A stretch of 64,000 bases of DNA from Candidatus Microgenomatus sp. (GCA_020724585.1 DYGS01000001.1:486002-550001); one strand, 5' to 3'. Counted from the stretch's first letter, positions 25,478-62,363 are shown. The notes: generated from the letters alone by a model not told the origin. A program made the numbers and translations.

Positions 25478-25480
25478 AGT

Positions 25481-25553
25481 GTCATTGCGAATACAATAAA
25501 GCAATCCGTCTCAGATCGCCACCCGCCACGCTTCGCTTGCGGTCGCGATGACA
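25481..25553. repeat. GC-rich hairpin-closed repeat element (copy 1), REP/MITE-like
   Basis: GTCATTGCGA...cagatcgccacccgccacgcttcgcttgcggTCGCGATGAC. The two ends form a 10-bp stem. Shares a ~45-bp core with 29401..29483. Lies exactly between the stop codons of convergent genes. Confidence 0.6.
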
Positions 25554-28810: not shown

Positions 28811-29400
28811 GAAATAATTAAATTGTCAAAGTTTTCATGATTTTCACGGACAGAGAGAAAATGGGGGAGAGGGACTACCCTATTTCATAGGGCAAATTTT
28901 TAATTTTAAATTTTTAATTTTTAATAAATTTCTAAAAAAATTATTTAATAAATAATAATTAATAATTTTGATTAATAATTAGTAACTAAGAATTAGAAAT
29001 AGCCTGATAAAATCAGGTTTATAAGTGGCCTCACCAAATCGATTTTAAGGCCTGTCTGGAGAAAAAGACGACTACTAGGTCGTCTAAATATTATGTCGTA
29101 TTTTCGATATAATGTAGCACTTCTCTGAAAAATAGTATATAGGGGATAGTATTTAGTATATTGGAAGCTAGAACCAAAAAGTTTATAGTCAGGATAAATA
29201 TAGAGCAAAATAGTAAAAAAAACTTAATAGAACATTAATGTTATTGTCATAATTAATTTATAATTAGTAATTTTTAATTAAAAACAACACACCTCCCCCT
29301 GACCTAAAATTTATATAGCGTCGTAAAAGTATTATTGTGCGACTACAAATTGTATTAAGTAATGTGTCGTATACTATAAAGAGAATAGTACTATACAAAT

Positions 29401-29483
29401 GTCATTGCGATCCCGCATTGCGGGAGAAGTAATCTAAAAACCCAGATCGCCACCCGCCACGCTTCACTCGCGGTCGCGATGAC
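29401..29483. repeat. GC-rich hairpin-closed repeat element (copy 2), with internal 19-bp hairpin insertion
   Basis: GTCATTGCGA tcccgcattgcgggagaag ...cagatcgccacccgccacgcttcactcgcggTCGCGATGAC. Confidence 0.6.
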
Positions 29484-29619
29484 ACGAAGTTATCCACATG
29501 ATAGTATCAAACTATATCATCCGTGAAAACTATAGGTAATACTCGTGAAAACACACATCCTATAATAATTTCCTCTTTTAACTTCCCTTCCCCCACTCCC
29601 CGGTTTGTATCCGGTAAAT

Positions 29620-37018: not shown

Positions 37019-37102
37019 GGTGCGGTGCTGGAATTGGTATACAGGTTAGTCTCAAAAACTAATGGTGGCAACACCACGAGGGTTCGAATCCCTCTCGCAC
37101 CA
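37019..37102 (+). tRNA. tRNA-Leu (anticodon CAA), class II with long variable arm
   Basis: Acceptor GGTGCGG/TCGCACC. D-arm CTG-AATTGGTATA-CAG. Anticodon stem TTAGT/ACTAA with loop CTCAAAA, giving anticodon CAA. Variable arm GGTGGCAACACC. T-arm GAGGG-TTCGAAT-CCCTC. Discriminator A. No encoded CCA. Confidence 0.8.
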
Positions 37103-38615
37103 CAAGACAGCGACCTGTCGGGTCGGCGCAAAGCGCCGACCAAGCGTTTCTCCCATCCCCTCGGACAGTTTTGTTTTCTAAAAAGAGGTCTGAGCCGAAG
37201 ATTTTTGCGGCGAAGACCTTTTTAAGTTGCAAGTCCGCAGACTTGGCAACTTGTTCTACTTCTGTAGCCTCAGAAATCCAGTTTTTGAAAGGTTCGATCC
37301 AACTCCCTTGATGTTTTTTGTTGTTAATAATTTGTTCTTCAAAAGTTTTCTTTTGAGATACAAGTTGGAGCTTACTTTCTTGAAATGTTTCTTTATCTAT
37401 AATTTGATCTAAGTAACTATCTAGGAGTAACTTTAGTTTAATATCAATTGCTTCAACTTGTTGTCTTTTCAAATTATTAACCTCAAGGGAGGACTTGGCT
37501 AAATCAGATTCTTCTTTTTTAAGTCTTAATAACATCTGATTAGCCCAAGTCTTTTTCAAAGAATACTTTTTGAGAATATTGGTTAATTGTTGATCAAGAT
37601 CATCTTCTGTGATGTGAGGTTGAGAACAGGAGATTAGCTTATTTTTCTTGGTACAGTGATAATAATGATAAGTTACTTCTCTATTAGTACCTTTGTAGAA
37701 TTTAGTTTTATAATCTCCTGTTATCATCATTCCACACTCACCACACCTTAAAATGCCGTTATATGGCTTAATTGGGTGATCTTGATCTGCTTTTACCCAA
37801 GGGCCATTTCTAATCTTTATAACTTCTTGGACTTTATCAAAAAGTTTCTTTGAAATAATTGGATCGTATCTGCCCTCATATACTTCACCTCCATATTTAA
37901 AAACTCCGTAGTAAAATGAATTTGTAAGTAACTTTTTAGTTTTATCTATCCTTAAATTTTTATTCTTAGAGGTAATAATACCTTTTGATGCTAAAAAGCT
38001 AGAAACTTTCTTTATTTGTATATCTCCTTTGGAATACATTTCAAAAGCCTTAATAATATGTGGTGCAACTTTTTTATTAATAACTATTGATTTATCTCTA
38101 CTGTCATTTAAATATCCAAGAGGAGATCTCCCTGGCATGAAACCGTTTCTAGCTTTTTGCCTTAACCCACGACGAGTGTTTTCACTTAAACTGTCAACAT
38201 AATACTTGCTTTGGCTAAACGAAATTGAAAGCATGAACTTCCCTTGAGGAGTGGGTTCAAACCAAAAGGTATTAAACTTGAGGGCAGATATTTTTCCTGT
38301 ATCTATTAAATAAATAATTCTTCCTCCATCTACTGAGTTTCTTGCCAAACGATCTGGATGCCATGAAATTATTCCAGAAGCACGACCTTTTTCAATACTG
38401 TCTAACATTTTATTAAAAATAGGACGTCCAGGAATCTTGGCAGATTGTTTCTCCACTAATTCTTCTACGATTGTTAGTCCCTCACGTTTGGCAAGTAAAC
38501 GAAGTTCATCAAGTTGACCTTCTATTGATTGTACTTGCATATCCTCAACATCTGTTGATTTACGAGCATACAGGAAAAATTTTTGTGCTATTGGATTATT
38601 TACAATTGTAGCCAT
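37059..38615 (-). CDS. Large serine recombinase (resolvase/invertase catalytic domain + recombinase domain + Zn-ribbon + coiled-coil)
   Basis: N-terminus ...FLYARKSTDVEDMQVQSIEGQ... has the serine-recombinase YxRxST catalytic motif. Also a recombinase domain, a Cys cluster (CGECGMM...HYYHC) and a C-terminal coiled-coil. Start chosen at MATIV (38615), preceded by TATAAAT. The ORF reads through the left repeat into the tRNA, so the true 3' end is uncertain. Confidence 0.8.
   Translation of the reverse strand: MATIVNNPIAQKFFLYARKSTDVEDMQVQSIEGQLDELRLLAKREGLTIVEELVEKQSAKIPGRPIFNKMLDSIEKGRASGIISWHPDRLARNSVDGGRIIYLIDTGKISALKFNTFWFEPTPQGKFMLSISFSQSKYYVDSLSENTRRGLRQKARNGFMPGRSPLGYLNDSRDKSIVINKKVAPHIIKAFEMYSKGDIQIKKVSSFLASKGIITSKNKNLRIDKTKKLLTNSFYYGVFKYGGEVYEGRYDPIISKKLFDKVQEVIKIRNGPWVKADQDHPIKPYNGILRCGECGMMITGDYKTKFYKGTNREVTYHYYHCTKKNKLISCSQPHITEDDLDQQLTNILKKYSLKKTWANQMLLRLKKEESDLAKSSLEVNNLKRQQVEAIDIKLKLLLDSYLDQIIDKETFQESKLQLVSQKKTFEEQIINNKKHQGSWIEPFKNWISEATEVEQVAKSADLQLKKVFAAKIFGSDLFLENKTVRGDGRNAWSALCADPTGRCLVVREGFEPSWCCHH
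37101..37166. repeat. Left copy of a perfect 66-bp inverted repeat flanking the serine recombinase gene
   Basis: 37101..37166 is the exact reverse complement of 38701..38766. Begins at the last 2 nt of tRNA-Leu. GC-rich. Confidence 0.9.
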
Positions 38616-38700
38616 GCTACAATTATTTATACGCCCGTAAATAATCCAAATCAATATATCAAAATATCGCAATATTTTGACTCCTTAATTTGTAGTTTTT

Positions 38701-38766
38701 GTCCGAGGGGATGGGAGAAACGCTTGGTCGGCGCTTTGCGCCGACCCGACAGGTCGCTGTCTTGTG
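38701..38766. repeat. Right copy of the 66-bp inverted repeat
   Basis: Exact reverse complement of 37101..37166. Confidence 0.9.
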
Positions 38767-39030
38767 CCTTTGTATGAAAAGGCACGAACTTATTTTATTC
38801 AAAATTTCTAAAGTACAAAGCATATTTTATCACGAAAGTGACAAACTTGTTTACCACAAAATTTTGATGTGTGAGCGGAGCAACAAGGGAGGGGTTAAAG
38901 GGGAAGGAATTGTTGCGGAGCATCGGGTTCCCGCTCAGCTCCGCTTCGCGGAGCTTCGCTAACCCATATCGTGTGTGCGCTCCAGGCCTCCACTCGCTTC
39001 GCTCGTTTCGGCCTTCCGCTTACCCACTGT
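38763..39030. repeat. 267-bp GC-rich repeat, copy 1 (inverted partner at 59512..59778)
   Basis: ~99% identical in reverse complement to 59512..59778 (one mismatch seen). Abuts the 66-bp repeat with no spacer. The ORFs at 38699..38962 and 59574..59774 are the same sequence read within the two copies. Confidence 0.9.
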
Positions 39031-39129: not shown

Positions 39130-39645
39130 CTATTTCTTCCAAATTCCTATTTTATTTTGTTTTGCTTCTTCTTGTGCTTCTAATAATTGAACTTGATGAA
39201 TAAATGGCTTTCTTTTTTGATATATAACTAATTCAGCCATACCTTTTCGCACAAGTTCAATGGAGATGTTCTTTCCATCAATGATTGGATATGCAAGAAT
39301 TCTTCCAAATTTGTCTGAAGTATAATTGTCATATTCAAGTTTTATTTCTTTACCTTCAACTAAATTTCTATTTGCTTCAGTAGATTCTTTTTCAAAAGGT
39401 TCTCCAGTTTCAGGAGCTGTCATACCAACATATCGTAATACTGTACTGTTAAATAACTCCACAGTGTCTCCATCTATTACTCTTTTAACAACTGCAGTTT
39501 TGGGAAGTTTTGTAATATCATGGCTCTCAATTGCTTCTCTAGAATCTAAAACTTTTCTTATATCATCTTCATATTCTGTACCCTTTGCTAAATCCTTTAA
39601 ATTTTTAAGAAGATCAACTGGAACTAATACGAATTTATTATTCAT
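39130..39645 (-). CDS. Staphylococcal-nuclease (SNase/thermonuclease) family protein
   Basis: ...VIDGDTVELFNS...RYVGMTAPET...KFGRILAY... matches the SNase OB-fold catalytic pattern. Confidence 0.7.
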   Translation of the reverse strand: MNNKFVLVPVDLLKNLKDLAKGTEYEDDIRKVLDSREAIESHDITKLPKTAVVKRVIDGDTVELFNSTVLRYVGMTAPETGEPFEKESTEANRNLVEGKEIKLEYDNYTSDKFGRILAYPIIDGKNISIELVRKGMAELVIYQKRKPFIHQVQLLEAQEEAKQNKIGIWKK

Positions 39646-43900: not shown

Positions 43901-44023
43901 TTCCAGTTCAGCTTCACTTTGATACGTAGATTCACGTAGGTTGTTAGCAATCTCTGAGTAGTCAGCTACAACAGTACTTTCATTATTTTGTGAAACAATA
44001 TTATAATTTTGACTATTCGACAT
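40961..44023 (-). CDS. hsdR: Type I restriction enzyme R subunit
   Basis: 1020 aa. N-terminal PD-(D/E)xK region. SF2 helicase motifs (TGSGKT, DECH). Confidence 0.9.
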   Translation of the reverse strand: MSNSQNYNIVSQNNESTVVADYSEIANNLRESTYQSEAELEKEFIKQLVSQAYEYISIKSENDLVVNLRKQLEKLNSYNFTDLEWERFFKNEIANPNQSIIEKTTTIQEDYIKNLTCDDGAIKNIYLIKKDSIHDNSLQVINQYATDEGERANRYDVTVLVNGLPLIHIELKRRGVAIQEAFNQINRYNRESFWAQSGLFEYIQIFIISNGTHTKYYSNTTRFQYVKENGGNSVKNGKRTSNSFEFTSWWADATNRPITDLVDFAKTFFAKHTLLNILTKYCVFTTDRLLLVMRPYQIVATEKILKRIEISTNYKKLGTIEAGGYVWHTTGSGKTLTSFKTAQLVSKLPYIKKVVFVVDRKDLDYQTMKEYDKFEKGAANSNKSTSILKRQLGDPEAKIIITTIQKLDRFINKNTGHTIFEDHIVLIFDECHRSQFGDMHTAITKAFKNYHIFGFTGTPIFAMNSSSGGTPNLKTTEQAFGDKLHTYTIVDAISDKNVLPFKVDYVSTVREAENIEDKKVSDIDREAILAAPERLSNIVTYIREHFDQKTKRNTFYKLKDRRLAGFNSIFAVSTIDVAKKYYAEFKKQLEGLPSDKQLKIATIYSFGVNDDDLDGMIDENSEDTTGLDVSSRDFLEKAIGDYNQMFGTSYDTSSDKFQNYYKDVSERMKNREIDILIVVNMFLTGFDATTLNTLWVDKNLRLHGLLQAFSRTNRILNSIKTFGNIICFRNLEKATNESIALFGDKEASGIVLLKAYNDYYFGYKDDGKDVRGYESLVRELLEKFPVGERIVGEQNQKDFIKLYGAILRVRNILATFDEFLGNEILTDRDIQDYHSAYIDIYNEFRKDIEVDKENVNDDIVFEMELIKQIDINIDYILGLIKKYHEDHTKNKELLLDINKAIDSSVELRNKKDLINQFISSLDIHSVVEEDWQKFVEGKKVEELEQIITSENLDHEATYRFIKNAFRNGNVATTGTEITKILPAGGRFSPTGERSKKRENVLDKLTRFFERFFNIATNDVD

Positions 44024-45257
44024 ATTCTTTAAATGTTAGCAGTTTATTCCGATAGTATTCATATTGCAATCTACGGGCTTCAAGTTCAGCAGGTAAACCA
44101 ACTGAAATATCATTTACTAACGCGTCAAATTTATCCAAAATCGATACGATTCGATTTTGTTCGGATAAGGATGGAACAGGTACCTTAATTTTAGCAAGAT
44201 CCTTTGCAGAAACATCAATAACTTTAGTACCTTTTGCTAATTTTTTCTTTTCATCGAAAAAATATTTTGTTTGAGTGTAATAACTTAGATATTTTGGATT
44301 TTCCTTGTGTTTGAAAATTGAGGCATGTCCACCAGTAACAATCTCTTCATTTCCAAGCCAGGCGACGGTTTTACAAACGTCTTCAATATTCTCACTAGTA
44401 TTGGTTATTATCAAATCATTCTTTTGTACCCTTTGTAGTCTTTTGGCAGTTTCTCGAGATACAAAAGACTTAGTTTTATCGGCATAAGTACCGTAGTGTG
44501 TGTATATTTGACCATAGTGAATACATCCAACTCCATTTTCTGTAAAATCACTTTTAGGCAAGCCATTACCTCTCACAAATACACCAATATCTCCTAGTGC
44601 CTTTTGTTCTACTTTATCATCAAAAGTCATTAATTTATCTTTGTAATATCTATATTGTTTATTCCTTGCTTCTAATTCTGCTTCTAATTCTGCTTCTAAT
44701 TCTGCTTCTAATTCTGTAAAACTATTAAGAATTTTGACAATCTCATTTTGAATTGTAAGTGGTGGAACGGGAATTTTAAATTTTGTAAATTCCTCTTTTG
44801 TAATTGTTTTGATAGTACTACCACGAGCAATTTGCCTTTCAATATTAAATTTACTTTGTAGTTGATATGCAAAATATTTTTTATTTATCTCAATCTTATA
44901 ACTTTCGAAAATTGCCAGTGTACGATCTACATAACAATCATATTGGGTAATTGCAACTCGGCCTATGCTACCCTGCAAAGTCACAAGTACTGTATCCATT
45001 GGTACAAAAACGCTCATTTTTTGTGCTAACTTTGAGATTTTACGTTTTGTATTGTTAACTAACCGCATATCCTTAGCAACATCTGCAACCTGCACAAAAG
45101 GCTTCGCGTCTTCACCGTCGTACCAATTCTTATCACCATATGGTTGAGGAAATGAACCACGTCGATATGCCGCTATTTCACCTAGCTCCATATATTTCAC
45201 ACCATTAGGACATAACTCTAAAATCAGCTGATCAAATTTGCTTTGGTGCTTTGTCAT
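44013..45257 (-). CDS. hsdS: Type I R-M specificity subunit
   Basis: 414 aa. Two target-recognition domains separated by a central coiled-coil containing (ELEA)x4. Overlaps hsdR by 11 bp. Confidence 0.85.
   Translation of the reverse strand: MTKHQSKFDQLILELCPNGVKYMELGEIAAYRRGSFPQPYGDKNWYDGEDAKPFVQVADVAKDMRLVNNTKRKISKLAQKMSVFVPMDTVLVTLQGSIGRVAITQYDCYVDRTLAIFESYKIEINKKYFAYQLQSKFNIERQIARGSTIKTITKEEFTKFKIPVPPLTIQNEIVKILNSFTELEAELEAELEAELEARNKQYRYYKDKLMTFDDKVEQKALGDIGVFVRGNGLPKSDFTENGVGCIHYGQIYTHYGTYADKTKSFVSRETAKRLQRVQKNDLIITNTSENIEDVCKTVAWLGNEEIVTGGHASIFKHKENPKYLSYYTQTKYFFDEKKKLAKGTKVIDVSAKDLAKIKVPVPSLSEQNRIVSILDKFDALVNDISVGLPAELEARRLQYEYYRNKLLTFKEYVE
44668..44715. repeat. Perfect 12-bp x4 tandem repeat (gcttctaattct) inside the hsdS central conserved region
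   Basis: Four identical head-to-tail units, in frame, encoding ELEAELEAELEAELEA. Confidence 0.9.
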
Positions 45258-45272
45258 AAAAAATATTTATAT

Positions 45273-46598
45273 TTACTCTTCTTTATTTACTCCCAATGTA
45301 ACATCAAGATAACTAACATAGTTTTCTAGATTTCGAATCAATTCATCAAAGAGAACTATATCGATATTATTGAATGTAGTTTTTAGTTTTTTTATTTCCT
45401 TCTCTAATCGTGCTGTTAATTCGTCATTGACACTTTCAGACGTAATATGATCCCTAGAAGAAATTATTAAAATACCTCTTGGCCTATATATTTTATCGTT
45501 TTCAATTAGGGATTTTGTATATTTGTTTTCAATCTGAGTTGTATCTATGTTTTCAGTTCGCAGATCCATGTACTTGTTTAATTGAAAAATAGATTTGTTT
45601 AGATCATGAGAAGGATAATATGAATCCCTTCCTTTCTCTTTTCTAAATAAAATCGTCCGATGTGTTTTAATTTCGATAATATCTATGTTGTTGTAAATAT
45701 CTACAGCTAAAAAATCTGGTCTGGTTTCTTTTTCATAACCATCCATTTCCTTAAATACTATCTGAGAATAAAACTCCTTATAGTTCATTAAAAGAATTCT
45801 TAAGTATCGATCAAAATATAATTGCCAACACGATTCTAAACTTTTTCGCTCTTCGCCAAAGACTTTTTTTGAAAATGATTTGAGTTTAGTTTTATTGCCA
45901 GTGAGTGTCAAAAGTTCAGTACCAACTTTAATAATTTCTCTTATGCTTTCCTTATACAAAGGAAGGGTTTCTTTCATAGTAATCTTGTAAGCTCCATCTT
46001 TAATTTGTTCATCCATGAAATTCTTTATAAATGTTCTATCGCCCTTACTTAGAGCAATATATTTACCTTCAAATCCTTTAACCACATATCCAACATTTGC
46101 AAAAATAGCTGATGTATCAACTTGCGCACTGTCCCTCATGTTAAACTTATCTCTAACTATTTTTGATGTTTTCGTCTTAATCATCGTCACTTTGCTTAAA
46201 TGATCAAGGTAGTTATCAAATTTTCTAACATCAATTATTACAACATCATTGACGTCATATTCAGATGGAATATCACGCATAAAACTTAAGTATTTCTTTT
46301 GAATGTCCTGTAGGCTAGCAAACTCTTTAAGTTCTTTTTTAATCGTAAAGTTTTCAAAAGAAAAGTACTTATCTGTTATCTCTAATGAATTTTTATCCAA
46401 AATTACAGCACAAAAAAAATCATCTCTTTGTTTAACTTCGTCGATAGTATTTCTTTCACCGTCTTGATATACACTATCTTTTCTGTGCACGTTATAAAGC
46501 TTAAGAGTTATATAATTTTCATTTTGTGAAATAACAGGGTCTTCTTTACGATTCTGTTTGAAGCTATCAATTTTTATGTTTAGCGCATTTATATCCAT
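45273..46598 (-). CDS. PD-(D/E)xK nuclease-fold protein inserted between hsdM and hsdS (Shedu/DUF4263-like?)
   Basis: 441 aa. The C-terminal region ...RPDFLAVDIYNNIDIIEIKTH... fits the PD-x(n)-ExK restriction-endonuclease-fold motif. The N-terminal region is unrecognised. Confidence 0.4.
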   Translation of the reverse strand: MDINALNIKIDSFKQNRKEDPVISQNENYITLKLYNVHRKDSVYQDGERNTIDEVKQRDDFFCAVILDKNSLEITDKYFSFENFTIKKELKEFASLQDIQKKYLSFMRDIPSEYDVNDVVIIDVRKFDNYLDHLSKVTMIKTKTSKIVRDKFNMRDSAQVDTSAIFANVGYVVKGFEGKYIALSKGDRTFIKNFMDEQIKDGAYKITMKETLPLYKESIREIIKVGTELLTLTGNKTKLKSFSKKVFGEERKSLESCWQLYFDRYLRILLMNYKEFYSQIVFKEMDGYEKETRPDFLAVDIYNNIDIIEIKTHRTILFRKEKGRDSYYPSHDLNKSIFQLNKYMDLRTENIDTTQIENKYTKSLIENDKIYRPRGILIISSRDHITSESVNDELTARLEKEIKKLKTTFNNIDIVLFDELIRNLENYVSYLDVTLGVNKEE

Positions 46599-46601
46599 AC
46601 A

Positions 46602-48155
46602 TCAACCTTCTATATCTTCGACGATTTTGTCAATTTCAATTCTTAATTCATTTTGTCTTGACACAATTTTTGCAATTTTGGCATTTAATTCTGCTATATT
46701 TACTACTTCTCTTTTGTTTTCTGCTACTACATAACCTGATACCCCAATATTGTAATCATTTTCTGCAACTGCCTTGTTATCGACAAGTTTTGAAAAATAT
46801 TCGATATCTGTACGATCTGTAAATGCTTTTAAGATTTTTAATCTATTTGTTTCACTTAATTTGTTTTTGTTTCCATTTCGCACAAATTCTGAAGATGCAT
46901 CAATGAAAAGTGTTTTGTTATCACTTTTACTTTTCTTTAAGACAATAATACAAGTTGCAATTGTTGTTCCAAAGAATAAATCTGGTGGTAACTGAATTAC
47001 AGTATCAATGTAATTATTATCGATTAAATATTTTCTAATTTTTTGTTCAGCTCCACTACGATATAGAACTCCTGGAAATTCAACAATTGCAGCCGTTCCA
47101 CTTGTTGAAAGCCAAGATAGCATATGCATAGTAAAGGCAAGGTCAGCCTTACTCTTTGGAGCCAATACTCCTGCAGGAGAAAAACGAGGATCGTTTATCA
47201 AAAGTGGATTAGAATCACCTTCCCATTTAATTGAATATGGAGGATTTGAAACTATTGCATCAAACGGCTCATCATCCCAATGTTTCGGATCCGTTAGTGT
47301 ATCACCAAGTGCAACATTGAAATTATTATAATTAACATCATGTAAAAACATATTAATACGACAAAGGTTATAAGTAGTAATATTAATTTCTTGACCAAAA
47401 AACCCTTGACGAACATTTTCTTTCCCTAGAACCTTAGCAAATTTAAGAAGTAAAGATCCAGAACCACAAGCAGGGTCATAAACTTTATTTACTTCTTTTT
47501 TACCAACTGTTGTAATTTCTGCTAGCAGTTCGCTAACCTCTTGTGGTGTATAGAATTCTCCTCCAGATTTACCAGCGTTAGAAGCATACATGGTCATCAA
47601 AAACTCATAGGCATCACCGAACGCGTCAATTGTATTGTCAGAATAATTACCTAATTTAAGATTTCCTATTGCTTCAACTATTTTTGTAAGTTTTTGATTA
47701 CGTTGTTCGACTGTATTTCCAAGTTTGTTTGAATTGACATCAAGATCTGCGAACAAACCCTTCAAATCATCTTCACTATCTGTGCCTTTTGCTGAATTTT
47801 CAATTTTCTTGAATACTAACGATAGAGTTTCGTTTAGATTATTATCTGCACGAGCTTTTTTGCAAACATTTACAAAAAGTTCACTTGGTAATATATAAAA
47901 CCCTTTTTCCTTTATAGTATCTACTCGTCCAAATTCTGCTTCTTTATCTGAAAGGTTTGTATAATCAAAATCTTTATTACCTCCTCTATGTTCATCAGCA
48001 TTTATATAATTAACTAAGTTTTCACTAATAAAACGATAGAATAGCATTCCTAATACATATTGTTTGAAGTCCCAGCCATCAACACTACCGCGCAAATCGT
48101 TAGCAATTTGCCATATTGTACGATGTAATTCTGCACGTTCTTGTTCTTTATTCAT
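46602..48155 (-). CDS. hsdM: Type I R-M N6-adenine DNA methyltransferase subunit
   Basis: 517 aa. HsdM N-domain. SAM motif (DPACGSGSLL). Catalytic NPPY (VSNPPYS). Confidence 0.9.
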   Translation of the reverse strand: MNKEQERAELHRTIWQIANDLRGSVDGWDFKQYVLGMLFYRFISENLVNYINADEHRGGNKDFDYTNLSDKEAEFGRVDTIKEKGFYILPSELFVNVCKKARADNNLNETLSLVFKKIENSAKGTDSEDDLKGLFADLDVNSNKLGNTVEQRNQKLTKIVEAIGNLKLGNYSDNTIDAFGDAYEFLMTMYASNAGKSGGEFYTPQEVSELLAEITTVGKKEVNKVYDPACGSGSLLLKFAKVLGKENVRQGFFGQEINITTYNLCRINMFLHDVNYNNFNVALGDTLTDPKHWDDEPFDAIVSNPPYSIKWEGDSNPLLINDPRFSPAGVLAPKSKADLAFTMHMLSWLSTSGTAAIVEFPGVLYRSGAEQKIRKYLIDNNYIDTVIQLPPDLFFGTTIATCIIVLKKSKSDNKTLFIDASSEFVRNGNKNKLSETNRLKILKAFTDRTDIEYFSKLVDNKAVAENDYNIGVSGYVVAENKREVVNIAELNAKIAKIVSRQNELRIEIDKIVEDIEG

Positions 48156-57800: not shown

Positions 57801-58541
57801 CTAAATTGTAGTTGTTGGAGCAGGGGTTGGTTCCATGGTTGAAACAACTGTAGGAATAGGAGTGGATGTTTCAGTTGGCTTTGGTGTTGGAGTAACTGTA
57901 GGAATTGGTACTGGTGTTGTTGATAATACTTCAAGATCTTGTATATCTTCAACTTCAAGTACTTTGTTTTTTGAATCATATGTACCTACTGCAAGTATTC
58001 TTTTTCCAACAAGAGAATTTAAATTAAAACCAATTGGTATTTCAAGAGTTACCGCTTCTGTAGAAGTAGTAATTAAATAGAATTTAACAGGATTAGTATT
58101 TGTTTTTGTTAATGTTCCTTTTAATGCAGTATCTTTTAGTAACTCAGGTTGTGGAGTTGGGGTTTTATTAGTGACAATTGCACTGTTAAATTTAAGGTTA
58201 GGAAAGAACATTGGAAAAACAACTCCTCCTAACCCAAATACTCCTGAAAATATAATTAAGGCTAGACCAAAAATTGTTAGTGGTTTAACCTTAATTTTCA
58301 TCTCTAACCCTTCATTTGCAAGTATTCTTTTCCACCAGTATTTAATATATACAAGTGGATTAGTTACTTTTAAATTAACAAGATCAGGTGGATTAGTAGT
58401 GTTTACACTTGTTGGGTTGTTTGTAGTTATTGTAATTGGTGGTAGTTTAGTTACATCTTCTTTTGGAACAAACTTTCCGTCAGCATCACGTTTCTGATTC
58501 TTTGCAATATTACTTCTAATTGGATCAACTGTTTCATCCAT
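57801..58541 (-). CDS. Secreted/membrane-anchored hypothetical protein with Thr/Pro-rich C-terminal tail
   Basis: One TM helix. C-terminus ...PVPIPTVTPTPKPTETSTPIPTVVSTMEPTPAPTTTI. Confidence 0.35.
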   Translation of the reverse strand: MDETVDPIRSNIAKNQKRDADGKFVPKEDVTKLPPITITTNNPTSVNTTNPPDLVNLKVTNPLVYIKYWWKRILANEGLEMKIKVKPLTIFGLALIIFSGVFGLGGVVFPMFFPNLKFNSAIVTNKTPTPQPELLKDTALKGTLTKTNTNPVKFYLITTSTEAVTLEIPIGFNLNSLVGKRILAVGTYDSKNKVLEVEDIQDLEVLSTTPVPIPTVTPTPKPTETSTPIPTVVSTMEPTPAPTTTI

Positions 58542-58619: not shown

Positions 58620-59117
58620 ATGAAACTAAACAAAATACATATATTCTTATTGATATCCTTTGCTTTTATTGCCATTTTATTTTCAACCTCAAATGTTTCT
58701 GCAGGTGGTGGTCCACAATTTGTTTGTAAAGAAATGGCTCAAAAACAAGGATGGTTAATTGATGACACAAAGTTTGATGAAGATTTATCTAGTAATGCTT
58801 GTATTTCAAGAAACCCAACAACTGAAGAAAAAGATAAAATTTTTGAATTTTGTAAGGCAGAACCAAAAGGAGAATTTAGGATTGATTGTTTAGATAAATG
58901 TAGAAAGTATTATTCTGACACTACATTTCGTGAATGTAGTAAAAATGAAATTAGCTCAATAAAATCTGCGATGTTTACATCTAAGGCTAAGAGTATTTTT
59001 AATAGACAATTAACATTAACAGAAACAATTGTTGTTGCTTTTGTGGTTGTTTTAATCTTCTACTTAATTGTTTCCTTATTTAAAAGTAAAAAATCTTCAA
59101 ATAAACAAAGTGTCTAA
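58620..59117 (+). CDS. Hypothetical secreted protein with C-terminal membrane anchor
   Basis: Signal peptide. Cys-rich. C-terminal TM helix. Confidence 0.35.
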   Translation: MKLNKIHIFLLISFAFIAILFSTSNVSAGGGPQFVCKEMAQKQGWLIDDTKFDEDLSSNACISRNPTTEEKDKIFEFCKAEPKGEFRIDCLDKCRKYYSDTTFRECSKNEISSIKSAMFTSKAKSIFNRQLTLTETIVVAFVVVLIFYLIVSLFKSKKSSNKQSV

Positions 59118-59511
59118 TAACTGTTCCGTCCTGCCCTATACATTGGCCAAAGGCCAACCACACCTGTAAGCTCTGGAGTGTTTTTGTGTTGGGCAGGATT
59201 CCCTGTTAAGGGAATATTTCAGGAGCAATGATTTTGTTGTTCTGCCTTCTAACCAAGTGCTGTGCCAAAGGCACTTTGTAGCTGTTTTCTAGCACTTGGT
59301 TTAGTTGCCCTAAATGGGCAAATTGCGACTGAAATTGTTCTAGTTTTAGGTACTTTAACGGTAACGGTAGCCGTTACCGTCAGCCGTCAACCGTCATACG
59401 GTAGTTTGGCCGAAAATACGGCTATTTGACGGATTCTGTAAAGTACCTGACGGGTATCCGTCAAGCCCTTCATAAGGGCTAACTACAAATAATCCCCTTT
59501 TCCTTAAAGTG
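59118..59511. ncRNA. Candidate structured non-coding RNA, identity undetermined, contiguous with repeat copy 2
   Basis: ~400 bp with no ORF. GC-rich relative to the flanks. It contains many perfect local stems: cctgccc/gggcagg, accaagtgct/agcacttggt, gtgcc-aaa-ggcac, and ggtaacggtagccgttacc. It is contiguous with the duplicated GC-rich 267-bp segment at 59512..59778. Confidence 0.35.
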
Positions 59512-59778
59512 GGTAAGCGGAAGGCCGGAACGAGCGAAGCGAGTGGAGGCCTGGAGCGCACACACGATATGGGTTAGCGAAGCTCCGCGAAGCGGAGCTG
59601 AGCGGGAACCCGATGCTCCGCAACAATTCCTTCCCCTTTAACCCCTCCCTTGTTGCTCCGCTCACACATCAAAATTTTGTGGTAAACAAGTTTGTCACTT
59701 TCGTGATAAAATATGCTTTGTACTTTAGAAATTTTGAATAAAATAAGTTCGTGCCTTTTCATACAAAGGCACAAAAAC
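59512..59778. repeat. 267-bp GC-rich repeat, copy 2 (inverted relative to 38763..39030)
   Basis: Reverse complement of copy 1. Contains mutually exclusive helices GCTCCGC-gaa-GCGGAGC and GCGGAGC-n16-GCTCCGC. Confidence 0.9.
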
Positions 59779-62363
59779 TAATGTTTGGTGTCTCTTGAGA
59801 AAAATCTAATTCTGTCGCCTTTGAAGTAAAGCGGAATTGAAGCCAGCGGGCCGTTTCTGTGTTTGGCAATATCCAAAACCACATTTTCCAAATTCTCATC
59901 ATCTTCGCGCCACAAAAACATAACCACATCTGCATCCTGTTCGATGCTATTGTGAACTATGATATTATTCGCTACAAAATTAGAATTTTTTGGCACGGTT
60001 GCGTCATATACTTTTCTAACTCCTACATATTCAATTTCTTTGACTTCGTCCCAATATATGTCAGAATTCGCTAATAACTTTAACTTCTCATTTTTTATTT
60101 TTGAATAAATCTGCATAAGTCTTCTCCTACTTATTCCATTCCCAAATCTTTGTGTTCCGCTGTAAGCCCACCCCATAAGCTTATGAAATTCTCTATGTGT
60201 CATATTCTTCTCTTTAACTACCATTTTAATTAAGCTCCAAACCTCTTTTGGAATAACATCATTATTAGGATTTTCTATTATATTTCGTAAAAATTTAATT
60301 GCTTCTTTTACTTTTTCATTTTTTTTACCAACACAACCTATTTCGTTTAAAAATTTCAATTGACTTTCTTTTCCATAAATATTGATATTAAACACATCTT
60401 TGTGTCCCTTATTAATAGATTTTGATATCTTGGAGATAATTCCTAGCCGAGTTAATAAGTATTGAATTTGAGAGACAAGAGTATAACTATTTGAAGCGTA
60501 GTAGACTGTAACTTTAGATTTTTTCTTACCAACTTGTGTATGGATACAACCATCTGTTGCCCATAAATGCTTTAAAAATAATTTAATTTTAGTGTTATCC
60601 AAATTCATAACTTCATCGGGTATTAACTTTTGGTATGAATGATGACCATATATTTTTAGGTCTCTAAACCACCTAACGATTGGATTATGTCTACCTCTTG
60701 CCAATTTTCCTTTTGAAGATAAATAAAGGTGATACCAACTTTTTTGTTTAATCACCCTTGGGTTAATTTCAAACTCATCTAATGCTGCTTTTTTAAGAAT
60801 ATTAATTAAACTCATATCTGAATTTGTATAATGTAAAGGTTGACCTTCTACATAACAACCATCACCAATCATGTGAGCTAAAACAATTAGATTGCTGTCT
60901 GAAATGTTTCCCGTACCCTTAACATTAATTACTCGAGGAACGGCTATACGATCACCTATCTCCAACTTATCTAATCTTTGCCATTGTTCAAATTTCAAAA
61001 ATTTGTGATTTCCAGAGGCCACAATTTCTCTTCCACTTTTTAGTTTTAGTTTATATACCTTTTTTCTGCCACTATTAAAAACTTTAGTGACTTTTGATGG
61101 TACTAATTTCATATCTTCATTTAAGGATATAATTTCAAAGTTATCCTTACCCACAAGCTCGTCAATTCTTATTTGTTTACCTGTTGGATAAATTGTTACA
61201 AGACTATCTCCTAATAGGCATCCGCTCTCGCGAAGGTCAGAAAGTTGTGGTTTTTTAATATTTCTTGATTCCACTCCTCGAGACAGCTGTGACAATGCCA
61301 AAACAGGAACCTTAAGTTCTCTGGCTAAGTTTTTTAAACCCTGTGAAATTTCTGATACTTCTTGAACCCTATTTTCCAAATTCCTGCTTCGAGCAAGCTG
61401 GAGATAATCAACCACAATTAAATCAACTCCATGCTCTACCTGCAATCTCCTTGCCTTTGTTCTCATTTCAAGAATTGACAGAGCGGGAGTATCGTCTATA
61501 AAAAGCGGTGCTTCGGCCAAAACCCCCATGGCTGTTGAGAGTTTGGCAAAATCATCTTCCGACAGTTTACCTGTTTTTAACTTCCAAGCATCAATATCTG
61601 CCTGACTCACCAATAATCTATCAACCAATTCCTCCCTGCTCATTTCAAGTGAGAAAAAGCCAACAGGTCTTTTGGTCAAAACCGAAACATTTTGAGCAAT
61701 TGAAAGAGCCATTGTGGTTTTTCCAACACCTGGCCGTGCTGCCAGAATTATTAAATTACTTTTCTGCATTCCCGCAAGAGCACTATCCAGATCGGCAAAA
61801 CCAGTCGCGACCCCTCTTAAACCCTCCCCTTGCTTCTGCAGTTCATCAAGTCTATCAAAACTTTCTGCTAGAGTGTCTCTAACTGATGTAAATGCGCTTT
61901 TGATGGTCTTTTGCGAAAGAGAAAAAATTTCGCTTTCTGCTTTGTCTAATAATTCTTCAGATGAAACCCCAACATCAGTTGACATGCCTACAAGTTTTGT
62001 TGCCGACTTCAATAAGCTTCTCTTTATTGCAGTATCTTTAACAATTCTGCCGTAATGCTCAACATGAGCGCTGGTTGGAACTTTATTAACTATGTCCGTC
62101 AAATACGAAGCGCCGCCTATTATTTTTAAATCTTTTCTTTTTTTAAGCCTTTCAGTAACTGTCAAAACATCAACAGGCACTCTCTCTTCATACAAAGAAA
62201 GCATTGCCTCAAATATTTTTTTGTGGCGGTCATCATAAAAATCATCCGGCGACAAAAATTCAGAAACAGCAATTACTGCATCTTTATCCAAAAGAAGTGC
62301 TCCCAAAACACTTTGTTCAGCATCTACACTGTGGGGTGAGGTCTTAATATCAATATCAGCCAT
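59778..62363 (-). CDS. dnaB: Replicative DNA helicase DnaB containing a 424-aa intein
   Basis: DnaB N-domain and Walker A (ARPGVGKTTMALS). The host motif SDLRESG is interrupted by CLLGDSLV...IIVHN, then resumes SIEQDADVVMFL. The extein totals 437 aa. Confidence 0.95.
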   Translation of the reverse strand: MADIDIKTSPHSVDAEQSVLGALLLDKDAVIAVSEFLSPDDFYDDRHKKIFEAMLSLYEERVPVDVLTVTERLKKRKDLKIIGGASYLTDIVNKVPTSAHVEHYGRIVKDTAIKRSLLKSATKLVGMSTDVGVSSEELLDKAESEIFSLSQKTIKSAFTSVRDTLAESFDRLDELQKQGEGLRGVATGFADLDSALAGMQKSNLIILAARPGVGKTTMALSIAQNVSVLTKRPVGFFSLEMSREELVDRLLVSQADIDAWKLKTGKLSEDDFAKLSTAMGVLAEAPLFIDDTPALSILEMRTKARRLQVEHGVDLIVVDYLQLARSRNLENRVQEVSEISQGLKNLARELKVPVLALSQLSRGVESRNIKKPQLSDLRESGCLLGDSLVTIYPTGKQIRIDELVGKDNFEIISLNEDMKLVPSKVTKVFNSGRKKVYKLKLKSGREIVASGNHKFLKFEQWQRLDKLEIGDRIAVPRVINVKGTGNISDSNLIVLAHMIGDGCYVEGQPLHYTNSDMSLINILKKAALDEFEINPRVIKQKSWYHLYLSSKGKLARGRHNPIVRWFRDLKIYGHHSYQKLIPDEVMNLDNTKIKLFLKHLWATDGCIHTQVGKKKSKVTVYYASNSYTLVSQIQYLLTRLGIISKISKSINKGHKDVFNINIYGKESQLKFLNEIGCVGKKNEKVKEAIKFLRNIIENPNNDVIPKEVWSLIKMVVKEKNMTHREFHKLMGWAYSGTQRFGNGISRRRLMQIYSKIKNEKLKLLANSDIYWDEVKEIEYVGVRKVYDATVPKNSNFVANNIIVHNSIEQDADVVMFLWREDDENLENVVLDIAKHRNGPLASIPLYFKGDRIRFFSRDTKH
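59949..61220 (-). mobile_element. Intein (Cys1 ... His-Asn, +1 Ser) with LAGLIDADG homing-endonuclease domain inside dnaB
   Basis: Splice junctions ESG|C and HN|S. Internal LAGLIDADG-type motifs (LIVLAHMIGDGCYVEG; LKHLWATDGCIHTQ). Coordinates come from codon counting: Cys382 at 61220..61218 and Asn805 at 59951..59949. Confidence 0.85.

Follow-up and report, generated by a model that had tools for sequence, protein, structure and literature searches.

What is the GC-rich segment, free of convincing open reading frames (ORFs), that lies beside dnaB at positions 59118-59783 of a 64,000-nt stretch of DNA from Candidatus Microgenomatus sp. (GCA_020724585.1 DYGS01000001.1:486002-550001)? Below, "the window" means this whole stretch, and all coordinates are positions within it unless a locus is named. 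A preliminary description had offered two interpretations of the ~660-nt segment: a large structured noncoding RNA, or a structured recombination site for the adjacent recombinase. The segment is not one RNA gene but the attR end of an island inserted by a large serine recombinase (LSR), and each interpretation is partly right, for a different half of it. The 5' ~380 nt is a conserved folded element with covariation, to which the RNA proposal can still apply; the 3' 267 nt is DNA of a recombination site and constitutes the P arm of attR/attP. The recombinase is not adjacent to the segment: the island's opposite end, 21 kb distant, carries its gene. We put the probability that the island, attR, and P arm are correctly identified and that a conserved folded module exists at roughly 80%.

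The segment sits between the end of a plus-strand ORF (58620-59117) and the dnaB stop codon (59778-59780). Because dnaB is on the minus strand, convergent with that ORF, the segment lies downstream (3') of dnaB and not upstream, as had first been stated. The other observations on its composition were largely right. Its GC content is 45.8%, as opposed to 30.7% in the island cargo that makes up the neighboring 20 kb and 36% in the flanking host DNA, and it is highly structured, with a minimum free energy of -251 kcal/mol on the plus strand (z = -14.2 against shuffles) and -239 kcal/mol on the minus strand (z = -8.1). No ORF inside it exceeds 66 aa and none is conserved. A Shine-Dalgarno-like AGGAG with an ATG opens a 17-aa ORF, but homologues have a shifted frame or no ATG there, and a 55-aa ORF annotated by JGI is likewise unconserved; with indels breaking both in homologous sequences, a protein-coding reading was rejected.

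The identification of the segment as the right-hand (attR-proximal) end of a 22.7-kb island (37104-59777) is based on comparison with an empty site. The LSR inserted this island between the 3' end of a tRNA-Leu(CAA) gene (37019-37103, plus strand; found by ARAGORN and Rfam) and the dnaB stop codon. The nearest relatives with long contigs, L128 and L130, in which the neighboring MBL protein is ~56% identical, are island-free and have the order MBL-dnaB-tRNA-Leu(CAA)-EF-P, the same as in the two flanks of the window, with the tRNA convergent. In L128, TTTT comes directly after the dnaB stop and leads into tRNA-Leu, leaving only 4-5 nt between stop and tRNA. This empty site reads GCACAAAAATTA / CCGGCACAAAAATTA and is close to the attB predicted from the junctions in the window, CTCGCACCACAAAAACTA / GCACCACAAAAACTA. 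Relative to it, the island is a discrete insertion. The corresponding gap in L130 (9879-10118 of that locus) is ~240 nt, as against 4-5 nt in L128, and encloses a 69-aa ORF that could be a relic of an earlier insertion at the same site.

Three junctions carry the pentanucleotide CACAA. At attL (37101-37105, plus strand) this core overlaps the CCA end of the tRNA, whose 3' end forms the B arm, and joins it to a 67-nt arm (37101-37167, plus strand), here called arm A, which is the P' arm. Arm A is antisense to the last ~22 codons of the recombinase gene and contains a GC hairpin, GTCGGCGC-AAA-GCGCCGAC. At attR (59770-59774, plus strand) the same core stands 3 nt from the dnaB stop and joins a 267-nt block, here called B*, to AAACTA, the dnaB stop, which marks the host side (B') of the site. 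The third junction (38762-38766, minus strand) joins B* to arm A. Since the two outer junctions are in direct orientation, they fit attL and attR of a serine integrase; the inner one resembles an intact attP, inverted. The core is short and identical at both ends, without long direct repeats. A serine recombinase requires an identical central dinucleotide, in direct orientation, at both ends. We also considered a smaller element of insertion sequence type, consisting of the recombinase gene and its 67-nt terminal inverted repeats only, and rejected it because CACAAG has no palindromic dinucleotide and the empty site shows that the whole 22.7 kb was inserted.

The recombinase gene (37059-38615, minus strand) encodes 518 aa from its ATG, with Resolvase (PF00239, E 2.5e-21), Recombinase (PF07508), and Zn_ribbon_recom (PF13408) domains, and its ORF reads through arm A into the antisense strand of the tRNA. 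An exact-sequence lookup matched no record, and solved structures were matched, by sequence, by the catalytic domain only. Homologues exceed 7900 and come largely from Microgenomates-type bacteria of the candidate phyla radiation (CPR). We surveyed 58 genomic recombinase loci, all of them in the integrated state, ~40 of which, with sufficient sequence on either side, showed a repeat. It is an inverted repeat around the gene, 55-147 nt long and mostly 100% identical, with the upstream arm 90-400 nt before the start codon and the other arm coinciding with the last ~20-30 codons. At its outer edge, this 3' arm shares a few nucleotides with the 3' end of a tRNA gene in convergent orientation, whose identity may be Val, Arg, Tyr, Pro, Ser, Gln, Thr, Leu, Gly, Ile, Glu, Met, Cys, Phe, or Ala, so that the recombinase ORF crosses attL; this read-through into tRNA antisense accounts for the range of family protein lengths (501-614 aa). 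The conserved part of the tail (…IFGSNL…RG…W[AS]AL.A.PT.R) is encoded by the GC hairpin, whose two sides covary. The extreme C-terminal tails (37059-37167 in the window; loci L012-L065) vary with the target, typically with G[FI]EP derived from the T-loop.

Single CPR genomes can hold four to six diverged recombinase copies at different tRNAs (CAWASW01, with L013, L016, L019, L025, and L043; CAYSAY01, with L012, L014, L018, and L056), and copies sometimes stand in tandem at adjacent tRNAs (L019, L025, and L124).

The 267 nt that are duplicated in the island are the P arm of attR/attP and end at the core CACAA. The AT-rich P arm proper (59680-59769, plus strand) holds a mimic of the tRNA T-loop, GTTCG at 59747-59751, which lies 23 nt from the core, compared with 19 nt for the T-loop of the tRNA itself. 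The family shares a P-arm motif, TTGATAAAATAGGTTCGAGC-N13-15, just outside the upstream repeat arm, and this corresponds to the last ~45 nt of the segment. In the 15 loci that could be scored the difference is always +4, the P-arm copy of GTTCG being 22-23 nt from the junction and that of the tRNA 18-19 nt, and a distant subfamily with another P arm (CAGTTCGAATTTGTTCGTAACAGATCAC) and the core TCAC has the same offset. In Listeria integrase-attP structures, the zinc-ribbon motif stands ~5 bp more distal in half-sites of the P type than in those of the B type, and the 4-bp register shift of GTTCG fits this logic. The P arm also contains TG-n-TAAAAT elements that resemble extended -10 promoters, oriented so that transcription would pass the crossover and enter arm A and the recombinase gene. 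From these motifs, the 267-nt repeat probably contains the recombinase promoter.

The unique part of the segment (59128-59507, plus strand; the SR core), probably together with the GC-rich first 150 nt of the repeat, forms a conserved folded element of ~350-520 nt that recurs, with ~45 homologues, in many related CPR islands as an unclassified RNA or single-stranded DNA. Its profile match in the window covers 59187-59471. An nhmmer search with the segment found homologues beside other such elements, and a pattern derived from the invariant stretch GGCCGNNNNTACGGCNANTTRACGG found 58 metagenome loci, 47 of which match the region profile. Over ~59128-59650, 34 distinct sequences align that are 46-79% identical to the window. 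The 5' domain begins with a hairpin (ATTCCC/GGGAAT), after which AGCAAT/ATTGC closes a three-way junction that encloses CCAAGTGCT…AGCACTTGG, with an inner GTGC/GCAC stem, and TTGCCC/GGGCAA. Its 31 pairs are paired in 95.2% of cases, compared with 27-47% when the partner is slid. Double changes occur at 7 pairs, a number reached by 4 of 500 shuffles, and in 28 cells, reached by none of the 500. Compensatory changes are therefore present beyond both slid and shuffled controls. With most pairs of this domain unvarying, we regard the covariation as real but modest. In the 3' domain, a multi-stem junction, three subtypes share one topology, each with GGCCG/CGGCC and CCGTCAA/TTGACGG (or CCGTTAA/TTAACGG) inside a closing helix built from unrelated complementary sequences: GGUACUUUA/UAAAGUACC, which is that of the window, UUUUGUCCG/CGGACAAAA, or GGUUACCG/ACGGUAACC. 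The GC-rich hairpin domain of the repeat (59508-59665, plus strand) has GCGAAGC-type loops, ends in the conserved pyrimidine motif CAATTCCTTCCCCTTTAACCCCTCCCTTG, and is conserved in homologues. Across homologues, perfect hairpins number 508, sixfold the 81 in shuffles. The preliminary description had singled out a pair of mutually exclusive hairpins sharing GCGGAGC; that motif is present at 59592, with three copies of GCTCCGC at 59582, 59615, and 59655, but the alternative pairing is not conserved in homologues.

No known RNA family accounts for this element. The weak resemblance to RNase P that had been noticed found no support in Rfam, which matched the segment to no family. For the whole window at the gathering threshold Rfam returned tRNA only, and for the region at E<=10 only chance-level hairpins (eukaryotic miRNA, snoRNA, and Vimentin). 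Rfam 15 gave nothing meaningful for two further homologous loci, with no RNase P, tmRNA, group I or II intron, 6S, OLE, GOLLD, ROOL, HEARO, or T-box, and membership in a known RNA family was rejected for all three representatives at any threshold. A guide or bridge RNA was rejected as well: the longest complementary match between the region and the reconstructed attB, determined for the element in the window, is 9 nt, and shuffles give 7-12 nt. A pattern scan of viral_contigs for the module had 0 matches, and plasmid and phage collections held no DNA similar to it. An all-against-all comparison of cargo ORFs from 17 elements revealed no universal protein partner, only sporadic sharing. The cargo shared sporadically among carriers of the module comprises an SNase-family nuclease and a 246-aa Pro/Thr-rich, membrane-anchored protein, found in varying order in the window (39130-39645 and 57801-58541) and in L025, L083, and L086. 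The smallest elements (2.7-4.3 kb) have one to three small ORFs besides the recombinase and the folded module, and the idea of a minimal element made of these two components alone was rejected accordingly.

Wobble pairs in the alignment (52 G.U compared with 21 A.C) favor the plus strand, and a plus-strand, single-stranded function is the reading of the comparative data that we favor, with the odds between RNA and DNA roughly equal. It is possible, at odds well short of even, that the module works as single-stranded DNA and not as RNA, as a single-strand origin, a priming site, or a hairpin array used on replication or entry in single-stranded form. Triloops of the type C[GNA]G make up 59 of 122, with C[GAA]G the commonest loop, a preference that one would sooner expect in stable DNA mini-hairpins than in RNA. 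The d(GCGAAGC) hairpin is an extra-stable type that occurs in origins of single-stranded phages. We found no convincing conserved promoter before the module and no clean plus-strand terminator after it. Comparative analysis does not separate single-stranded DNA motifs from RNA motifs, and plasmid-associated motifs of 223-349 nt have been described (Weinberg et al. 2017; PMC5737381). On the other hand, the islands encode no Rep, relaxase, or other single-stranded DNA machinery, LSRs work on duplex DNA, multi-way junctions with long-range closing helices are commoner in RNA, and the plasmid and phage collections contain nothing similar.

The claim that the 3' 267 bp of the segment is duplicated in inverted orientation is correct, with boundaries that had been 1-2 nt off: 59508-59774 matches 38762-39028 (minus strand) at 266 of 267 positions. 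Arm A is repeated in the same way, 37101-37167 being a 100% inverted repeat of 38700-38766 (minus strand) around the recombinase gene; this second arm A copy lies between the P arm with its putative promoter and the recombinase start, in the position of a 5' leader. The 67-nt and 267-nt repeats adjoin with a 5-nt overlap, CACAA, and 38700-38766 together with 38762-39028 form an intact 329-nt attP-like unit, inverted and directly upstream of the recombinase gene. The integrated island therefore carries a split attP (arm A at attL, B* at attR) in addition to this inverted unit, and it is because a second attachment-site unit is kept beside the recombinase gene that the 3' part of the segment recurs 20 kb away. 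In an excised circle, the two inverted attP-promoter units would separate a recombinase arc from a cargo arc. Nested double repeats are also present in five independent elements (L025, L040, L113, L118, and L092), in L113 with 108 and 75 nt, both 100% identical.

These repeats are not an assembly artefact. One base distinguishes the two 267-nt copies, and the junctions are spanned in independent assemblies: a Logan contig of a different run matches the window at 100% identity over dnaB, the repeat, and the unique part as far as 59200, and a 101-kb JGI contig runs into the repeat from the cargo. Further contigs terminate within the 67-nt or 267-nt repeats. Logan contigs from two runs (L007 and L008) end at 59211, and a third, coming from the other side (L003), ends at 59200. 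Contig ends near 59198-59215 fall at a near-palindromic hairpin, ATTCCCTGTTAAGGGAAT, possibly a break of the de Bruijn graph at the hairpin. Across the family, many public contigs start or stop within ~50-500 nt of the recombinase gene, which suggests that assembly routinely fails at the inverted repeats.

Could the repeats instead constitute a programmed invertible switch, in which the recombinase flips the 20.5-kb cargo, its own gene, or both, and the segment is an inversion site? We regard this as unlikely, even though the recombinase gene lies between perfect inverted repeats of 67 nt and the cargo between near-perfect ones of 267 nt. Both cargo orientations do exist among related elements, as L094 and L087 have the flipped isomer, in which the recombinase is directly preceded by the folded module and B*, the far end having B* alone. 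Moreover, the repeats are ~100% identical although identity among the family proteins has fallen to 35-90%, which points to continuing exchange between copies. Yet the recombinase gene is convergent with the tRNA, never flipped, in all ~35 loci in which the tRNA was located, available assemblies of this organism contain no alternative junctions, and the empty site marks the outer junctions as insertion junctions. Serine invertases (Hin/Gin/Pin) have ~190 aa and ~26-bp sites, whereas this protein is an LSR of integrase type with 518 aa and repeats of 67 and 267 nt, and the orientations differ only between elements. Inversion could also be a RecA by-product of the repeats.

A host origin for the whole ~660 nt, as one large structured noncoding RNA gene such as a divergent RNase P or another housekeeping RNA, is very improbable. 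The strong folding z-scores, the conserved hairpins with compensatory changes, and the GC richness in an AT-rich genome would all suit such a gene. It is contradicted already by the island-free relatives, which lack the sequence at the same locus, and by the occurrence of several copies per genome inside mobile elements; three representatives also lack any Rfam match, and the last ~100 nt are AT-rich attachment-site and promoter DNA duplicated beside the recombinase. That the 267-nt repeat is the 3' untranslated region or terminator of the host dnaB copied into the island, or an assembly artefact, can be dismissed as scarcely credible: a terminator-like hairpin and T-run do follow the dnaB stop (59748-59775, minus strand; the same bases as the P-arm hairpin, on the opposite strand) and several contigs end inside the repeats, but the empty site in L128 has only 4-5 nt between the dnaB stop and the tRNA, homologues of the repeat lie beside recombinase genes at other tRNAs in other genomes, and both the one-base difference and the independent assemblies speak against an artefact.

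Several observations weigh against our identification of an attR end carrying a P arm and a conserved folded module, among them the triloop preference and the missing transcription signals described above. The folded core was found in only 5 of the 58 recombinase loci (10-kb flanks), and one complete element (L040) keeps the GC-rich hairpin domain and lacks the SR core. The module is therefore probably an optional part of the element backbone that is not needed for recombination. Where present, it is always just inside the P arm and points at the crossover. Three elements that carry the module (L104, L102, and L098) lack the long repeats, which means that the inner copy is not obligatory, and we know of no explanation in LSR biology for the retention of an intact inverted attP copy. 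The T-loop offset is 4 bp here, as against the 5 bp of the Listeria structures. LSR attP sites are usually dyad-symmetric between P and P', and inspection by eye revealed no such symmetry, the P arm bearing no resemblance to arm A in reverse complement. The spacing of the P-arm promoter is noncanonical, with a 21-nt gap from TTGACA to TATAAT in L048, so the promoter is called from the extended -10-like TGnTAAAAT motifs only.

A mechanism for such an island can be sketched in four tentative steps, for each of which we would allow even odds at best. The recombinase may read the T-loop and acceptor end of any tRNA gene as the B half-site and the displaced mimic as the P half-site. The P arm may serve as promoter and operator of the recombinase; as it would hold the promoter, the inner copy could keep the gene expressed, perhaps autoregulated, after integration has split the other copy. 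The paired repeats might permit cargo flipping, incidentally or deliberately, both isomers being present among related elements. Finally, the folded module might act as a plus-strand single-stranded nucleic acid, either a transcript toward the attachment site or single-stranded DNA, and would then serve the element in cis, through control of transcription across the junction or through replication or establishment of the excised circle; it would not be required for recombination, as some related elements lack it. A more ambitious proposal, which we consider doubtful, is that the module represents a new class of element-encoded structured RNA working with the tRNA-targeting serine integrases of CPR bacteria, with the retained inverted attP as part of a flip-flop life cycle. 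Such an RNA might determine when or in which direction recombination proceeds, or, in the excised circle, regulate the convergent transcription that crosses the attachment site.

An LSR island is in itself a known kind of system. LSR elements and prophages (phiC31, Bxb1, A118/Listeria LI integrase, TnpX/TndX, and SCCmec Ccr) have the same architecture of Resolvase, Recombinase, and zinc-ribbon domains, the same simple insertion, in which attL and attR share a short core in direct orientation but no long direct repeats, and the same location of the recombinase gene at one end, with the spacing of the recognition motif differing between P-type and B-type half-sites. Unlike these, the island belongs to a family that targets the 3' ends of tRNAs of many identities, apparently through a T-loop mimic; targeting of tRNA genes is a habit of tyrosine integrases. 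The island further differs in its intact inverted attP copy with nested 67-nt and 267-nt inverted repeats, in a recombinase ORF that runs across attL, and in the conserved folded module beside the P arm.

The module can be compared with large bacterial noncoding RNAs and with bridge RNAs. Like GOLLD, ROOL, HEARO/omega RNA, ARRPOF, GEBRO, and PAGEV (PMC5737381), it is several hundred nucleotides long, multi-domain, and hairpin-rich, occurs on mobile elements, often near tRNA genes, and has no obvious protein partner. It differs from them in lacking any Rfam match, in being so far restricted to LSR islands of CPR/Microgenomates, and in always lying immediately inside the P arm, pointing at the crossover. 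The bridge (seek) RNAs of IS110/IS1111 are likewise structured noncoding elements beside a recombination junction, upstream of the recombinase in one isomer or in the circle. Those systems use a DEDD recombinase, however, and not a serine recombinase, and the module is 2-3 times longer, shows no target or donor complementarity above chance, and is absent from some relatives. Isomerization of the yeast 2-micron or plastid type and the Hin/Gin systems resemble the island in that two identical inverted repeats with a recombinase site split the (excised) circle into two arcs, and in that both relative orientations occur, here among relatives. In contrast to these, the island has a serine integrase and not Flp or a small invertase, it is integrated through one of the two repeats, and its orientations were compared between elements.

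Three features appear to be undescribed in the literature searched: mimicry of the T-loop at a 4-bp shift in register, the nesting of inverted attP copies, and the folded module. Large serine integrases are valued in genome engineering because they need only short DNA sites, and here a very large, previously uncharacterized family appears to choose tRNA gene ends by means of the universal T-loop sequence. The 4-bp shift of the T-loop motif appears to tell donor from target, which offers a simple, testable rule for site choice and for discrimination between attP and attB. As nested perfect inverted repeats break metagenome assemblies, recognizing them should help to close CPR genomes. The folded module adds a candidate, from uncultured organisms, to the short list of large structured RNAs or single-stranded DNA elements of bacteria. 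Should the RNA-partner, flip-flop proposal prove true, it would provide the first RNA partner and the first 2-micron-like architecture described for an LSR.

The cargo of the island (39029-59117; GC 30.7%) includes genes for the SNase nuclease, a trypsin-like protease, type I restriction-modification, a Shedu-like protein, a NUDIX protein, a kinase, an HSP70-like protein, and a methyltransferase, among others. The Shedu-like gene (45273-46598, minus strand) encodes 441 aa with an SduA C-terminal nuclease domain and lies between hsdS (44013-45257) and hsdM (46602-48155), and the type I restriction-modification operon with this gene is a compact two-system defense cluster. Beyond the island, the 861-aa dnaB (59778-62363, minus strand) holds an intein with LAGLIDADG domains (Pfam Intein_splicing and LAGLIDADG_3), while its orthologues in L128 and L130 are intein-free and 439-440 aa long. 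In the other flank, GC-rich intergenic units at 25480-25553 and 29400-29484 share a 42-nt direct repeat (95% identical) and are each bracketed by inverted ends, TGTCATTGCGA…TCGCGATGACA; they look like a small hairpin-type repeat, resembling miniature inverted-repeat transposable elements or repetitive extragenic palindromes, or a small RNA, unrelated to the island.

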